DNA of 64,000 nt from Myxococcales bacterium (GTDB taxonomy: Bacteria; Myxococcota_A; Polyangia; Polyangiales; DASUME01). The DNA lies in assembly GCA_047601445.1 (NCBI GenBank), contig JASGJH010000001.1, positions 7,840,001 to 7,904,000 of the forward strand. Direction: 5' to 3'. Made by a program: the position numbers. This document shows, one piece after another, positions 15,001 to 21,000 of this stretch; the stretch's first letter is position 1; every line of letters starts with the position of its first letter.

Positions 15001-18000
15001 ATCGACAGGGGCGCACACATTGACATGGCCCCATGCCGTCTCTACGTTGCCCCTTCAGGAGAAGCAGCATGGCTGGCAAAAACGTACAAGAGTTCAACGA
15101 ACTGAACTTCGACGCCGAGGTCCTCAAGTCGGACGTGCCCGTGCTCGTCGACTTCGCCGCGACCTGGTGTGGCCCGTGCAAGGCCATCGCGCCCTTGGTC
15201 GGTCAGCTGGCTGACGAGTACACCGGCAAGGTCAAGGTCGGAACTATCGACATTGACGACAGCCCGGGCATCGCCCAGCGCTACGGCATCCGCGGCGTTC
15301 CTACGCTCTACGTGTTCAAGGGCGGCGAAGTGGTCGGCAAGCTCGTGGGCGCTGCGCCCAAGCAGAACATCGCTGCGCTCGTGCAGCGGGCGCTCTGAGC
15401 GAAGCACTCGGCCCCGATTCCAGGGGGCTCGGCACCACGAACACGCGCCGTAGTTGGGCGCCGGTTTGCGCCGTAGTTCGGCGCCAGCACCTCGCGCCGT
15501 AGTCTGCGCTTAGCGGCCGGTGCTGCCGAAGCCACCACCGCCGCGCACTGTCTCACCCAGCTCCGCGAGATCCACGCAGGTCTCGAGGTCGACTTGGACG
15601 ACGGGCGCCACGACCAGTTGAGCGATGCGCTCGCCGTGGGCAATGGTGAACGGCGTGTTGCTCAGGTTGACCAGCAGCACGGCGAGCTCCCCTCGGTAGT
15701 CTTCGTCGATGGTGCCGGGCGCGTTCAGCACGGTGATGCCGTGCTTGGCCGCGAGTCCCGAGCGCGGTCGCACCTGGCCTTCGTGGCCCTTGGGTAGCGC
15801 CAGAATCAGGCCCGTCGGAATGCGGGCACGCCCCAGCGGCTCGATGACCACCGGGGCGTCCAGGTCTGCGCTCAGGTCGAGTCCCGCGGCTCCGTGCGTG
15901 GCGTAGCGCGGGACAACCGCACTGGGGCGCACACGAAAAATACGGAGCGTGGGACCGTCAGCCATCAGCGACGTTCGCGCTCGCGGTCAGCCTCGCGGAC
16001 GCGCTCGCGGTTGCGGGCGCGGGCGCGGATGCGTGAGGGACGCTCACGCTCGGTGCGGTCGTCGCGGTCGGAGGTCGAGGCCGAACCCTCGCGCTCTTCG
16101 AAGCGCTCGTCGCGCTCGTCTTCGAAGCGCTCCGGACGGCGTGGAGCGGGGCGCTCGGGCAGATCCGAGGAGCGTGCGCGGCTGGGGCGCTCTTCGTCGC
16201 CACGGCCACGGGCAGGGCGCGCTTCGAAGCGGTCGTCGTCGCGACCCGCTCGGGCCGGACCACGCGCGGGGCGCTCTTCGGCGTCGAGGTCACGCGAGCG
16301 AGGACGCTCGTCGCGGCCACGGCTCGGGAGCTCTTCGTCACGGCCACGCGGGCTCACGGGCTTGCGAGCGGCGCTGCGGTCGTCGAGGTCGCGACCGCGT
16401 GCGGGCTCGTCGCGATCGAACTCACGCCCACGGGCGCGGGGTTCGCGTTCGCTCTCACGCGTGGCGGGCTTGCCGAAGGAGGGACGCTCGTCCTCGCGCG
16501 AACGCGCAGCGGGACGCTCGAGGTCGAGGTCGCGCGAGCGAGCGGGGCGCTCATCGCGATCGAGGTCACGCGGCCGTTCCCGGCTGCGCTCCTCGTCGCG
16601 AGGACGCGCGGGGCGGTCGAGATCGCGGCCGCGACTCGGACGCTCATCGAGCTCCTCACGGGCCTTGACTGGCGTCCGCTCACGGCGGCTCGAATCACGC
16701 TCGAGGTCGCGCGGCTTTTCGTCGCGGCGCTCGAAGCGCTCCTCGCTGCGGGCCGAGCGTTCGCGGCGCGGCTCTTCCTCGCGGCGAGCGGGCTTCTCGC
16801 GCTCGAATTCCCGGCTCTTGGCAGGGCGCTCTTCGCGCTCCTCGCGAGCCTTGAGGCTGGGACGTTCCTCGCGCTCGAAGTCGCGCGGCTTGCGCTCCTC
16901 GCGCTCCTCGCGTGCCTTGAACGCCGGGCGCTCTTCGCGGGCCTTGAAGCTCGGACGCTCTTCGCGCTCTTCACGTGCCTTGAAGCTCGGACGCTCTTCG
17001 CGCTCTTCACGTGCCTTGAAGCTCGGACGCTCTTCGCGCTCCTCACGGGCCTTGAAGCTGGGGCGCTCTTCGCGCTCCTCGCGCGCCTTGAACGCCGGAC
17101 GCTCTTCGCGCTCCTCACGGGCCTTGAAGCTGGGGCGCTCTTCGCGCTCCTCGCGCGCCTTGAACGCCGGACGCTCCTCGCGCTCCTCACGCGGCTTGCG
17201 CTCCTCGCGCTCTTCGCGCGCCTTGAACGCCGGACGATCCTCGCGTGCCTTGAAAGCGGGGCGCTCCTCGCGCTCCTCGCGCGGCTTGAATGCCGGGCGC
17301 TCTTCACGGCCACGTCCGCGTCCTTCGCCGCGCTCGAAGCCACGACGCTCGCCGCGACCTTCCTCGCGCGCTTCGCCACGGCCGTTCAGCTTGCTCGCTG
17401 CTGCCTGGTCGGCGGCCCCGGGCAAGGCGTCCTTGCGCGAGAGCCGGATGCGTCCTTCGCGGTCGATGTTGGTCACCTTCACGGTCACCTTGTCGCCGAG
17501 GTTCACGAAGTCCTCCACGCTGTTCACGTGGTTCCAGTCCATGTCGCTGATGTGGCAGAGCCCATCCTTGCCAGGCAGGATCTCGATGAACGCGCCGTAA
17601 GGCTCGATGCGCTTCACGGTGCCCTCGTAGACCTCGCCGATTTCGGGCTCGGTGGTGAGGCTCTTGATGATCTCGAGCGCCTTCGCCACGGCCGCGCTGT
17701 CGGCCGAGGCCACGCTCACCGTGCCGTCGTCCGCCACGTCGATGCTGGCGCCGGTCTGGTCGACGATGGCGCGGATCATCTTGCCGCCAGGGCCGATGAT
17801 GGTGCGCACCTGGTCGGGCTTCACGCGGATCTGCGTGATGCGCGGCGCGTACTGCGAGAGCTCCTCGCGTGGCGCTCCGATGGCGCGGTTCATCTTGTCC
17901 AGGATGTGCAGGCGAGCCTCACGCGCCTGGTGCAAGGCGCGCTCCAAGATCTCACGGCTCAAGCCCTCGATCTTGATGTCCATCTGGATCGCGGTCACGC

Positions 18001-21000
18001 CCTTCTCGGTGCCACACACCTTGAAGTCCATATCGCCGAGCGCGTCCTCGTCACCGAGGATGTCGGTCAACACCGCGTAGCGCTCGCCTTCCTTGATCAA
18101 GCCCATCGCCACGCCGGCCACGGGGGCCTTGATCGGCACGCCCGCGTCCATCAGCGCCAGGGCTCCGCCGCACACGGAGGCCATCGACGAGGAGCCGTTG
18201 GACTCCGTGATCTCCGACACGATGCGCAGGGCGTAGGGGAACTCTTCCGGCGTCGGCAGCACCTTGGCCAGCGCGCGCTCCGCCAGGTTGCCGTGGCCCA
18301 CCTCGCGACGACCGGGGCCGCGCATGGGCTTCACTTCGCCGACCGAGTAGGGCGGGAAGTTGTAGTGCAGCATGAAGTGCTTGTGCTGATCGCCCTGCAG
18401 CGTGTCGAGACGCTGGGCATCGCGGGTGGTGCCCAACGTGGTGGTCACGATGGCCTGGGTCTCACCGCGCGTGAACAGCGAGGAGCCGTGGGTGCGCGGG
18501 AGCACGCCGAGCTCGATGCTGATGGGACGCACCGTGCGGGTGTCGCGACCATCTAGGCGACGGCCTTCGTCGAGCACCTGAGCGCGCATGGTGTTGTAGC
18601 GGAGCTCTTCGAAGGCGTCCTTGAGGGACTGCTCTTCGTTCGGGAACTCGTAAGCCAGCTGGCTCACGGTCTCCTTCTTGATCGCCTTGATGCGATCGGC
18701 GCGCGCGTGCTTGTCAGCGATGTTGCACGCTTCACGCACGTTCCAGAGCGCGGTCTGGCTCACGCGGTCCTTGAGGAACTGCTGCGGGCCCGAGGCGCTG
18801 AAGCTCCACTTCTGCTTGCCTACCGCCTGCTTCATGCGCTCGATGAGCTCGAGCGTGTCCTGCACCGACCGGTGCGCGAACAGGAGGGCCTCGATCATGT
18901 CCGTCTCGGACATCTCGTCGGCTTCACCCTCCACCATCACAATCGCGTCGCGCGACGCCGCCACCAGGAGCTCGCAGTCGCTCTTCTCCATCTGCTGGAA
19001 GGTGGGGTTCGCGATGAACTCACCGTTCACGCGGCCGACGCGCACGCCGGCGATGGGGCCGCTCCACGGAATCGGGCTGATGTGCAGCGCGGCCGAGGCG
19101 CCGATCATGGCCAGCGTGTCAGGCGGGTTCTCCTGATCGAACGACATCACGGTCGCCACGACCTGGACCTCGCTCAGGTAGCCTTCGGGGAAGAGCGGGC
19201 GGCAGGGGCGATCGATGAGGCGCGAGATCAGCACCTCGTAGTCGCGCAGCTTGCCTTCGCGCTTGAAGAAGCCGCCGGGGATCTTGCCGGCCGCGTAGGT
19301 CTTCTCCTGGTAGTCGACGCTCAGCGGGAAGAAGCTCTGGCCGGGCTTGGGCTCCTGCGTGCCGCACACCGTGACGAGCACGATGGTGTCACCCGCGCGC
19401 ACCAAAACCGAGCCACCTGCTTGCTTGGCGATGCGACCCGTCTCCAGAGTCACGACCTGGTCGCCGATCCGTACCTTCTCTCTAATGATCATTCAGCGCT
19501 CCTCGGGCCCGCGTTCGGGCCGGGACAAAACACGGAGCGCTGGGGGCTGCGGGCTCGGTCTTCCTTCGGAGTGCTCGAACTCGGTGGTCGAGTGCTCGGA
19601 GCGAAGATCGAAGAGCCGCGGGCCATTCCTTGTGGGAACTCAGCGACCGTGGTGTACGCGCCACTCCGATTTTGAAGGGGCGCTCACGTGAGCACGCTGC
19701 CCGTCGGGCAATGCGCTCTGGCAGCCACCTGGCCTCAGCTGGCCGCCTGTTGGCGAGCGGGTGCAGCCCTAAACTGCGTTGACCCGCCCAAGGGACGCCC
19801 GTCTGGACAGTCCCGGGTCCGTCCCCCCTGGGAACCGACCCTGTTCGGTGCCGGACACCATGTCCGACCCCGTAACCATACCGAGCCATCGGCCCAGTAT
19901 CTAAAAAATTCGCCAGACCCCGTTGCCTGGCCTTCCCCTATTTCGTGCTTCGAAGCGCGCAGGTGGGCGCGCACGCAAGAAACGGAAAAGCCCGGGGCGG
20001 TTTCACCGACCCGGGCCAACCCCATCACTTGCGGATGTTGAGTTCCTTGATGACCTTCCTGTAGCGCTGGAAATCCGCGCGCATCAGGTAGTCCAACAAG
20101 CCACGACGCTGGCTGACCATTTGGAGCAGGCCGCGACGGGAGTGGTGATCCTTGGTGTGGGTCTTGAAGTGCTCGGTGAGGTGCTGGATTCGCTCGGTCA
20201 ACAGGGCGATCTGGACCTCGGGGGACCCGGTGTCGGTGGGGTGCGTGCGGAACTTGCTGATCAAGTCCGTCTTGCGTTCTGCTGCAGTCGCCATCGAAAT
20301 GCTCTCTACGTTGTTCTCTTGGGCGGGCGAATATGAAGGCCACCCCCCCGGCCGTCAAGGCCGTGACCCGACCAGAGTCAGGCTTGGGCCCCGGTTCGAG
20401 GGGGGCTGGGGGCTCAACCCGCGAAAGGAATACGTTCCTTAAGCAGACGGGCCCGTTCCCGGGCCAGCGGGACGCGCGGTGAATCCGGGTGATCAAGGAT
20501 GAGTTCGTAGGTCCCGGCGCCCGCGGGCTCCATCGCCCGGATTTTGTCGATCCGCACCATGGCCCCTCGATGAGAGCGGAAGAACTCGCTCTCCGATAAG
20601 CGCTGCTCCAGGTTCGTCATGGTGAGGTCGAGGGCGAGGCGATCGCTGGCGGTCACGGCCCAGACCAGCTCGTCCTTCATCTCGAAGTAGATCACGTCGG
20701 CCACTTCGACGACCACGTAAACCCCGCCGCGTCGCACGGCGAGCCGCTCGAAGAGGGCCTCCTTGGGGCCGGCCGGGATCGAAGCCGTGGTGGCGGTGGT
20801 GGGGGAAGGGCCGAACGAGTTGGTGTCCTTGCGCAACGCGGCCTGAGCGCGTGCGATGGCGCTGCGAACTCGCTCGAGCCGCGCGGGCTTGAGCAGGTAG
20901 TCGAGCACTTGGGCCTCGAATGCGCGCAACGCGGCGTCGTCATAGGCGGTCACCACGATGACCTGAATGTTCGGGCGCCGACGCTTGAGCGCCTCGGCCA

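Follow-up and report, generated by a model that had tools for sequence, protein, structure and literature searches.

A long arginine-rich, mixed-charge tail on the polynucleotide phosphorylase of a Myxococcales bacterium

The polynucleotide phosphorylase (PNPase) gene in the analysed window, a stretch of 64,000 nucleotides from a Myxococcales genome consisting of one contig (9,502,601 bp), encodes a canonical core ending at residue 687, followed by a 488-residue tail. With a probability of roughly one half, this tail is a selectively maintained, Arg-rich, mixed-charge, RNA-binding disordered appendage of about 490 residues; RNA binding, and any clustering, we infer. When all six frames of the genome were scanned, the tail was by far the largest low-complexity region of mixed charge, with 420 80-residue windows qualifying against 143 for the runner-up.

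The pnp coding sequence (15965..19492, minus strand; 1,175 codons plus stop) was delineated by ORF translation, Pfam, and NCBIfam. Pfam assigned two RNase_PH domains, RNase_PH_C, PNPase, KH_1, and S1 to the product, with S1 ending at aa 687, and the NCBIfam equivalog TIGR03591 spanned aa 9-688 at 1050 bits (cut-off 525), while the NCBIfam profile search gave no match in the tail. The core (aa 1-687; 17432..19492, minus strand; two RNase PH domains, the alpha-helical PNPase domain, KH, and S1) was also mostly folded in the AF2 model, with 10-residue block means of pLDDT mostly at 70-93; pLDDT falls under 50 at aa 51-82, 323-347, and 376-400. The gene is a genuine PNPase, and the survey's finding of a 1,175-aa protein with a normal core and an Arg/Glu tail agreed with ORF, Pfam, and composition. 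Directly downstream lies dut (dUTPase, 151 aa; 15510..15965, minus strand), and the pnp stop (TGA) and dut start (ATG) overlap by one base in TGATG (15963..15967, minus strand; read from the sequence). Of the 12 order loci checked, nine have the pnp-dut order, and the stop/start overlap occurs in three of the four genus loci with a readable junction; among relatives, L004 has the same overlap as here and L040 has TAGTG. Upstream, a 532-nt spacer (19493-20024) separates pnp from rpsO (ribosomal protein S15, 89 aa; 20025..20294, minus strand), which was assigned by eye from its translation and from the classical rpsO-pnp arrangement.

Four parts were distinguished in the tail, all on the minus strand. 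A linker with an RGG-like segment (aa 688-735, DALPGAA..SKLNGRGEAREEGRGERRGFERGEGRGRGRE; 17288..17431) is the only Gly-rich part (nine Gly in aa 701-735 versus none in aa 736-900) and is similar to RGG/RD tails found across the order. It is followed by a repeat array (aa 736-900; 16793..17287; DNA period 36/72 nt) with eight full copies of REEREERP[AS]FKA plus shortened variants, a degenerate mixed-charge region with ERP, RDLD/RDFD, and RGRD motifs (aa 901-1142; 16067..16792), and a conserved Arg-rich C-terminal motif of 33 aa (aa 1143-1175; 15968..16066) defined by alignment and an AF2 helix. The nine or more copies of a 12-residue unit that had been reported were recovered, as REEREERP and EERP[AS]FKA each occur nine times (eight of them as the full 12-mer), and TRF again returned periods of 36 and 72 nt at 16928-17305 (contig 7856928-7857305; 85-88% matched). 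Residues 701-1175 consist of 28.4% R, 22.7% E, 9.1% A, 9.1% P, and 7.4% D. This segment of 475 residues, 143 of them acidic, carries a net charge of just +13; the tail may bind RNA weakly, and competition between its acidic residues and RNA is even conceivable.

In the AF2 model (21-sequence alignment), aa 693-1154 had pLDDT below 50 and lacked secondary structure, with values of about 26-34 across aa 901-1142, so that the tail is predicted to be intrinsically disordered. A helix was modelled at aa 1151-1174 (10-residue block means of 53-73), and the terminal 33-aa Arg-rich motif containing it resembles, as modelled, an arginine-rich RNA-binding motif. All seven genus tails had a charged fraction of 0.52-0.62, a net charge per residue of +0.01 to +0.03, and a kappa of 0.033-0.079; these bulk properties were kept despite tail identities of 48-72%. 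Kappa of the window tail was 0.059, below 200 of 200 shuffles (mean 0.122, minimum 0.078), as computed with our own implementation and a coarse search for the maximum. Well-mixed strong polyampholytes are expected from polymer physics to form expanded, salt-responsive chains, and the tail (charged fraction 0.63) is attached directly after S1. It might act as a highly solvated brush that gates the KH/S1 entry face, keeping out, for instance, structured RNA or RNA bound to ribosomes, and could respond to ionic strength. The terminal helix could fold back onto the core or, for autoregulation, onto the leader of the pnp mRNA. E. coli PNPase is autoregulated, and the rpsO-pnp spacer could house such a leader; however, no Rfam family was found between positions 12000 and 24000 of the window, spacer included, and we regard this regulatory or steric role as very unlikely.

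Across the genus, complete ORFs had tails of 417, 476, 488, and 579 aa, and tails cut by a contig end measured at least 354-458 aa, so that a long tail was present in all seven genus genomes with a readable tail, in line with the long frames noted earlier. The reading frame was maintained across 354-579 variable codons in seven genus species. Relative to the closest species, the tail had a dN/dS of 0.227 and the core one of 0.098, with the last 40 codons at 0.14; in comparisons with three more distant species the tail value never reached 0.5, and the most distant comparison gave 0.477 for the tail versus 0.233 for the core, i.e., tail values 2-2.3 times those of the core in the closest and most distant comparisons, with values in the repeats being alignment-biased. 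In the C-terminal motif, 21 positions were invariant in seven of seven sequences, and the motif was also found in two G004 copies. Judged from the sequences, the kept frame, the dN/dS values, the invariant motif, and the overlap of the stop with the dut start indicate that the tail is translated in frame and selectively maintained.

Repeat units vary by species (REEREERPSFKA, EERPARIER, RDERPARVRDDV), which looks like slippage-driven turnover under little sequence constraint and counts against a functional RNA-binding appendage. It is possible, if doubtful, that function is limited to a short ancestral Arg-rich tail plus the terminal motif, and that the additional 300-500 residues arose by slippage as a tolerated repeat expansion, kept harmless (soluble, charge-balanced) but functionless. 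The 36/72-nt tandem repeats, the range of complete tails within one genus, the higher dN/dS of tail than core, and independent cases elsewhere (a 252-aa PNPase tail in G030, metagenome PNPases of 1,229-1,383 aa) would all fit such an expansion. Yet tail dN/dS of 0.23-0.48 is well below 1, the long tail occurs in every readable genus genome, and its charges are near balance and mixed beyond all shuffles, although selection against toxicity alone could suffice for the latter.

Relatives outside the genus had been described as tail-less, which did not hold: every one of the 25 complete PNPase ORFs sampled in other families of this order has an Arg/Gly/Asp tail of 42-252 aa. None of these tails is shorter than 40 aa or contains less than 17% Arg, and RR falls within the last three residues in ten of them. 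The 400-580-aa tail itself was restricted to one genus. Outside the order, four of 20 hand-picked genomes had an Arg-rich PNPase tail and 16 were tail-less; because 15 of the 20 PNPases inspected there function with tails of at most 25 aa, the tail is dispensable for core activity. The genus tail is thus a repeat-driven, genus-specific expansion of an ancestral RGG/RD-type tail of 42-252 aa, during which Gly was largely exchanged for Glu, Pro, and Ala.

The genome contains exactly one RNase_E_G match, as previously stated; its 509-aa ORF ends in ...YHLEQFDLTSA and lacks a C-terminal extension. RNB (RNase R type) and RNase_J_C were each matched once, and RNase_Y_N not at all. Of the two DbpA-type helicases claimed, there are DbpA-type-looking ends on two of the four best DEAD-box ORFs, as judged by eye only. 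In 39 of 41 relatives a short single RNase E/G was detected, and the open frames there did not exceed 784 aa; among order members inspected, the largest frame reached 845 aa, its extra length lying in an acidic stretch inserted upstream of the catalytic motif and not in a C-terminal domain. Order-wide Arg-rich tails together with order-wide short RNase E/G argue for an expansion and not for genus-level compensation, contrary to the proposal that the tail arose for want of an RNase E/G scaffold.

The tail could nevertheless be a scaffold that nucleates an RNA degradosome or BR-body-like condensate on PNPase in place of the RNase E C-terminal domain, with the C-terminal helix docking a partner. 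The 509-aa RNase E/G core and the lack of an RNase Y match would leave room for this, the tail is long and multivalent and predicted to be disordered, R and F being potential stickers, and it holds one sharply conserved short motif within fast-evolving sequence, a pattern known from RNase E microdomains. Length-dependent condensation of Arg-rich mixed-charge domains, reported in 10.1101/771592, points the same way. However, the scaffold is lacking order-wide while the long tail is confined to one genus; in the 20 genomes from other orders or beyond, long RNase E and PNPase tails were not distributed in a complementary way (short RNase E/G only in two of four tailed and nine of 16 tail-less genomes); the conserved motif is single; and matching tails were absent from RNase G and the four best DEAD-box helicases of the genome. 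Charge patterning is also opposite to what RNase E C-terminal domains of this phylum show, and we consider the scaffold unlikely.

The likeness to RNase E scaffolds (E. coli, Caulobacter, and the phylum's own L085-L088) lies in a disordered, charged extension of approximately 500 aa that contains Arg and is attached to an RNA-decay nuclease, and in fast evolution around a sharply conserved short motif, but here it sits on the exonuclease instead of the endonuclease. Compared with four RNase E C-terminal domains of the phylum, PNPase tails have about twice the charged fraction (0.52-0.62 versus 0.31-0.39), finely mixed instead of blocky charges (kappa 0.03-0.08 versus 0.19-0.32), like-charge runs of at most 4 instead of poly-R runs of 6-12, no poly-R or acidic blocks, and less Ala (9-10% versus 16-28%); unlike in RNase E scaffolds, a membrane-targeting helix and a set of partner microdomains were not recognisable. 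Of the module put forward in the survey's finding, a real, translated, predicted disordered tail conserved in kind is supported, whereas its likeness to the RNase E C-terminal domain is not.

Other parallels are found among Arg-rich appendages. DEAD-box RhlE-type C-terminal extensions and the basic tail of RNase R are bacterial examples of disordered, Arg-rich or RGG-type extensions on RNA enzymes. Searching the tail with phmmer against 1.84 billion representatives gave only 48 matches at E <= 1e-3, and a Pfam scan of 30 of these identified one PNPase and seven other RNA enzymes with [DE]RP[SA][FY]-type repeats, namely three RlmI/K-type methyltransferases, three RluB-type pseudouridine synthases, and one DEAD-box helicase. 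Such repeat tails (P0002, P0012, P0015, P0007, P0027, P0014) share with the PNPase tail a kernel of acidic-R-P-(S/A)-(aromatic or R) in tandem 9-13-aa units, but the PNPase tail is longer (417-579 aa) and ends in its own conserved helix. A proteome survey describes low-complexity regions of prokaryotic RNA-binding and RNA-processing proteins as Arg-enriched (PMC6821194). According to 10.1101/771592, condensation of Arg/Asp repeat domains depends on length and Arg; the domains described there resemble the tail in using Arg as the basic residue (R 28% versus K 4% in the tail) alternating with Asp/Glu, in a near-neutral, slightly positive charge, and in fusion to an RNA-binding module, and order-level RD runs (RDRDRDRD in L010 and L011) match their synthetic sequences. 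The PNPase tail differs from them in being bacterial, on a phosphorolytic exonuclease, with Pro about once per 10 residues and one Phe per 12-residue unit in the array. Such a tail on PNPase was not found described in the literature search. The human mitochondrial degradosome, reported to consist of the helicase SUV3 and PNPase (10.64898/2026.09.06.749684), is a PNPase-based precedent without an endonuclease scaffold; a helicase partner here is only hypothetical.

PNPase is a trimer in which the KH and S1 domains sit on top of the pore where RNA enters, so three tails would project from the entry face. They could serve there as weak, multivalent, salt-sensitive RNA-binding antennae, with the terminal helix as the contact of highest affinity. 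RNA-dependent clustering would be a plausible consequence, because eukaryotic Arg-rich mixed-charge domains condense length-dependently. In this way the tails may capture substrates or tether PNPase to RNA-rich sites.

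The minus-strand frame at window positions 15965..19492 was found to be a single open frame of 1,175 codons, and its product was matched as polynucleotide phosphorylase (PNPase; gene pnp) by TIGR03591 (the polyribonucleotide nucleotidyltransferase equivalog; 1050.4 bits against a cut-off of 525, aa 9-688) and by NF008805 (1029.8 bits against a cut-off of 471, aa 6-688). The Pfam domains (two RNase_PH, two RNase_PH_C, PNPase 240-317, KH_1 553-610, and S1 615-687) follow the order of the family, i.e., RNase PH, helical domain, RNase PH, KH, and S1. In the second PH domain, the block G486 D487 M488 D489 F490 K491 V492, which we take from E. 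coli PNPase to bind the catalytic metal, is invariant in all 21 aligned sequences, and AlphaFold2 (21-sequence alignment) predicted a mostly folded core (10-residue block means of pLDDT mostly 70-93, few segments below 50). The survey's finding of a normal PNPase core followed by a long tail was thus borne out by Pfam and NCBIfam, with S1 ending at aa 687; the tail itself (aa 688-1175) was matched by no model of either collection. Its composition, recomputed for aa 701-1175 (R 28.4, E 22.7, A 9.1, P 9.1, and D 7.4%), agrees with the survey's figures, and Arg outweighs Lys (4.4%) among the basic residues. The 36- and 72-nt tandem periods claimed inside the gene were recovered at 16928-17305 with Tandem Repeats Finder, and for the repeat unit, said to occur at least nine times including close variants, REEREERP was counted nine times, eight of these within the full unit REEREERP[AS]FKA.

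Several comparisons show that the tail is translated and under constraint. The same frame stays open through 354-579 tail codons in seven species of the genus that holds the source genome. Tails from complete ORFs measure 417, 476, 488, and 579 aa, the other genus ORFs end at contig ends, and an eighth genus locus (L003) is broken by a masked stretch. When the window PNPase was compared with that of the closest species (92% identity over aa 1-733), dN/dS (Nei-Gojobori) was 0.098 in the core and 0.227 in the aligned tail, with 0.14 over the final 40 codons, and tail values against three more distant species were 0.31-0.48; because the alignment of repeats biases such figures, they are read as no more than "clearly below 1". 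The C-terminal 33 residues (aa 1143-1175) form a motif, R..RTER[ED]RPSRxRxRAR[NT]R[ED]RVRE..RER, in which 21 positions are invariant in 7/7 sequences (four genus genomes and three metagenome fragments) and which was also found in two copies from one further genus genome. The tail frame is read to its end, because the pnp stop codon overlaps the start codon of dut (TGATG) here and in a second species, and as TAGTG in a third; dut is the next gene after pnp in nine of the 12 loci checked in the order (Polyangiales).

Two further open frames that overlap the tail, both by-products of the stop-free, GC-rich repeat, were rejected as genes. The 568-aa Arg/Ser-rich ORF at 15894..17600 on the plus strand is an antisense image of the repeat, since the C-terminal motif, dN/dS, and the stop-start overlap all fit the minus-strand frame; the other is a 341-aa ORF in another minus-strand frame (16354-17379). 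Four sequencing runs (each with 5-6% of the sampled words) were likewise discarded as evidence for expression of the tail: their contigs, short and from metagenomes or metatranscriptomes, come from other organisms, as most are 85-95% alike and they lie chiefly on the conserved core. On the other side of pnp, the spacer to rpsO (20025-20294, minus strand) is unusually long (19493-20024, 532 nt) and could contain a pnp leader or autoregulatory structure; no Rfam family reached its gathering score at 12000-24000, a range that includes this spacer. Further upstream, the C-terminal part of the minus-strand frame at 20414-22210 resembles, by eye, a response-regulator receiver followed by a LytTR-type DNA-binding domain, and the 330 codons before this part are probably non-coding.

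AlphaFold2 predicted aa 693-1154 to be disordered (pLDDT below 50, block means 25-37, no secondary structure) and placed a single helix at aa 1151-1174 (block means 53-73), which is Arg/Glu-rich, not amphipathic-hydrophobic; nowhere else in the tail do more than 18 residues follow one another without a Pro or Gly. A sequence search of the PDB with the alignment of PNPase C-termini gave no match at E <= 10. The window tail has a charged fraction of about 0.63 and a net charge per residue of +0.027, and its kappa (a charge-patterning measure, low when charges are well mixed; computed with code of our own that searches only coarsely for the maximum) is 0.059. Since this is lower than in each of 200 shuffles (mean 0.122, minimum 0.078), the tail is a strongly charged, well-mixed polyampholyte. 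When all six frames of the genome were scanned for windows in which basic and acidic residues each make up at least 22%, the tail was by far the largest mixed-charge region, with 420 qualifying windows vs 143 for the next.

Sizeable mixed-charge repeats were found in two other proteins of the genome, both encoded outside the window. The second rank in the scan is taken by an 865-aa frame with HARE-HTH and Mrr_cat (restriction endonuclease) domains (locus L031:536-3133, minus strand, i.e., about 1974035-1976632 of the source genome), which carries two very large charged low-complexity regions with acidic blocks, poly-R runs, and RD and RERDDR repeats. Third is a KhpB/Jag-like protein of 364 aa (KH_KhpA-B and R3H; locus L032:502-1596, minus strand, about 7988001-7989095), whose C-terminal tail (about 160 aa) consists of RERTDDRGPS-type mixed-charge repeats. 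The four best DEAD-box ORFs and the RNase G of the genome have no comparable tails, and the idea that mixed-charge tails mark all of its RNA-decay proteins was dropped on this ground.

The sequence that follows S1 was read in other families of the order as well, at 28 PNPase loci, 25 of them with complete ORFs. In all 25, the tail is 42-252 aa long (median 55), contains at least 17% Arg, and is rich in Arg, Gly, and Asp (RGG, RGRD, and RD runs, GESRDR repeats), and 10/25 have RR within their last three residues. Among 20 hand-picked loci outside the order (three same-class genomes, best-scoring matches, and longest open frames), 15 tails are 7-25 aa long without Arg enrichment, four are Arg-rich (three of 43-75 aa, one of 36 aa), and one is a Gly/Ser-rich tail of 56 aa. 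As Arg-rich tails occur in 25/25 complete order ORFs, and 15 of the 20 outside are short and not enriched, an Arg-rich, mixed-charge PNPase tail is an order-wide trait, of which the genus tail is an expansion that differs in length and composition. Gly falls from 14-34% in the complete order tails (51% in one that ends at a contig end) to 1-4% in the genus, with Glu, Pro, and Ala rising; the window protein has kept an RGG-like character at aa 701-735 alone, with nine Gly there and 11 in the remaining 440 tail residues. The repeat units vary among genus species (REEREERPSFKA; EERPARIER; RDERPARVRDDV), which indicates a rapid, slippage-driven turnover around a common [DE]-E-R-P kernel. Independent expansion of PNPase tails has occurred elsewhere, namely in another family of the order (G030, locus L033), where a 939-aa PNPase has a 252-aa tail of GGDRDR/GERGGDRDR repeats, and in metagenome PNPases of 1,229-1,383 aa (P0052-P0054). 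When aa 900-1175 was searched against 5.8 billion proteins, the five matches at E <= 1e-5 were all PNPases (1,163-1,383 aa), three named in their source only as "polyribonucleotide nucleotidyltransferase" and two without a name. A less likely reading of the function is that only a short tail and the end motif matter, with the added residues of the genus tail being a tolerated expansion: the turnover of units would suit such an account, and the dN/dS values of the aligned long tail, clearly below 1, have to be set beside it.

In the survey's finding, the tail had been read as a module like the C-terminal domain (CTD) of RNase E, scaffolding a degradosome or condensate in place of the missing RNase E domain. 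Its inventory holds: the source genome, one 9.5-Mb contig, has one RNase_E_G match, a 509-aa ORF that ends in YHLEQFDLTSA without extension, and the RNase J and RNase R listed with it are present as one RNase J-type and one RNB-type protein; RNase Y was not found in the genome. In the order, a single short RNase E/G was matched in 39/41 relatives, none of whose open frames exceeds 784 aa, and the largest frame among order members of the phylum sample was 845 aa. In the two loci of this longer type that were read (L083 in G025 and L084 in G133, both of order family f17), the single RNase E/G owes its added length to a strongly acidic Asp/Thr/Glu insertion of roughly 200-300 aa (Asp/Thr or Asp/Glu/Ser repeats), which lies upstream of the catalytic DVN motif, and it has no C-terminal extension. 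Because one short RNase E/G is typical of the whole order, the absence of the scaffold is much older than the long PNPase tail. An RNase_E_G open frame of at least 800 aa is present in at least 22 genomes outside the order, usually beside a short one. Of the 20 genomes outside the order in which the PNPase tail was read, four have an Arg-rich one: two of these encode no RNase E/G other than a short form, a third has a 1,031-aa form, and the fourth has two matches, for which lengths were not given; among the 16 without such a tail, seven have an RNase E/G of at least 800 aa and nine only short forms. These 20 genomes, a small and non-random sample, show no complementary pattern of PNPase tail and RNase E/G length, and with the absence of the scaffold being order-wide and older, compensation for it by the tail was not upheld.

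The likeness to the RNase E CTD was assessed by comparing seven genus PNPase tails with four RNase E CTDs (493-729 aa) of the same phylum. The charged fraction is 0.52-0.62 in the tails and 0.31-0.39 in the CTDs, kappa 0.033-0.079 vs 0.19-0.32 (a contrast large enough to be independent of the coarse implementation), and net charge per residue +0.01 to +0.03 vs -0.11 to +0.02; like-charge runs reach at most 4 in the tails, whereas the CTDs have poly-R runs of 6-12 and acidic runs of 3-7. The RNase E CTD is therefore blocky, with Arg-rich and acidic segments, and the PNPase tail is the opposite, finely mixed. The two also sit on different enzymes, one on the RNase E/G catalytic core and the other behind the S1 domain of PNPase. 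The RNase E scaffold has several short conserved microdomains, which bind a helicase, enolase, or PNPase, and an amphipathic membrane anchor; in the tail, one conserved motif (aa 1143-1175) was found. What survives of the proposed likeness is the long disorder, predicted by AlphaFold2 for aa 693-1154; host enzyme and charge pattern speak against it. A complex prediction of RNase G (509 aa) with the last 60 aa of PNPase scored 0.00, which is not evidence either way. With these differences, and the absence of comparable tails on candidate partners (the four best DEAD-box ORFs and RNase G), on one side and the shared disorder on the other, we regard a degradosome or condensate scaffold as an unlikely function of the tail.

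In sequence grammar, the closest characterised analogue is the eukaryotic Arg-enriched mixed-charge domain (R-MCD), which the tail matches in predicted disorder, high charged fraction, Arg as main basic residue, fine interspersion of charges, and net charge near zero or slightly positive (7/7 genus tails). RGG/RG boxes fit the Gly-rich order-level tails with their RGG/RGRD repeats, and in the window protein only aa 701-735. The C-terminal helix (aa 1151-1174), Arg-rich, predicted helical, and free of Pro and Gly, presumably resembles viral arginine-rich motif (ARM) peptides. Greig et al. report that pure Arg/Asp dipeptide repeats condense in a length- and Arg-dependent manner, that net charge tunes them, and that they act in synergy with an RNA-recognition motif (10.1101/771592). 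Because such repeats condense, a low kappa would not in itself argue against condensation.

A phmmer search of the tail against 1.84 billion representatives returned only 48 proteins at E <= 1e-3, of which 30 were scanned with Pfam and nine sequences were read. Among them were one 1,219-aa PNPase, three short C-terminal fragments with the conserved motif, and seven other bacterial RNA enzymes from metagenomes, i.e., three RlmI/K-type methyltransferases, three RluB-type pseudouridine synthases, and one DEAD-box helicase (P0002, P0012, P0015, P0007, P0027, P0016, and P0014); the remaining matches had unrelated domains (several eukaryotic-type) or no Pfam match and were hit via repeat regions. 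In the four RNA enzymes that were read (P0002, P0012, P0007, and P0014), the matching part consists of tandem arrays of DRPSFRDRDDRGG, DRPARPSYGDRP, or DDRPSYQQRD units. As seven other RNA enzymes matched the tail, an acidic-Arg-Pro-(Ser/Ala)-(aromatic) repeat is a recurring appendage of RNA-acting enzymes. This fits PMC6821194, according to which Arg is enriched in the low-complexity regions of prokaryotic proteins that bind or process RNA; polynucleotide phosphorylase has 0 occurrences in that paper. Sequence likeness of this kind hints at [DE]RP[SA][FY]-type repeat tails as a shared, undescribed class on RNA-acting enzymes.

PNPase is a trimer, with KH and S1 arranged around the RNA entry pore, and three tails of about 490 residues would thus emanate from the entry face. 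Our preferred reading, which we hold with a probability of roughly one half, is that they serve as antennae that bind RNA weakly, multivalently, and in a salt-sensitive way, and that would thereby concentrate RNA locally or hold the enzyme at RNA-rich sites. The invariant Arg-rich helix would make the strongest RNA contact, and RNA-dependent clustering would be a plausible by-product. A gating or autoregulatory element, which tails at the entry face might also form, is considered very unlikely. A bolder extension of the R-MCD analogy is that, in an order without an RNase E scaffold, the tail may be the cohesive element of an RNA-decay condensate, a counterpart of R-MCD-driven speckles in eukaryotes, which in the genus with tails of 400-580 aa might become a PNPase-nucleated body whose invariant C-terminal helix recruits a partner or a specific RNA; this is quite unlikely.

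PNPase is among the best-studied RNA-decay enzymes, and full-text searches of the literature brought up no description of a disordered tail or C-terminal extension on a bacterial PNPase, nor of a degradosome in myxobacteria, a mention within a paper being possible in both cases. A PNPase-centred degradosome as such has a precedent in the SUV3-PNPase complex of human mitochondria, which reportedly works without an endonuclease (10.64898/2026.09.06.749684). An Arg-rich disordered tail on an RNA enzyme is hence of a known kind; unusual here are its size, its host enzyme, and the clean evolutionary length series. This natural series runs from 7-25 aa in most PNPases outside the order over 42-252 aa in the order to 417-579 aa in the genus and continues to metagenome PNPases of 1,383 aa, with charge balance and charge mixing tightly conserved over it. 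It provides a ready-made system for the role of Arg-rich mixed-charge domains in bacteria, be it RNA capture, condensation, or regulation, and could show whether bacteria that lack an RNase E scaffold organise their RNA decay in any way.
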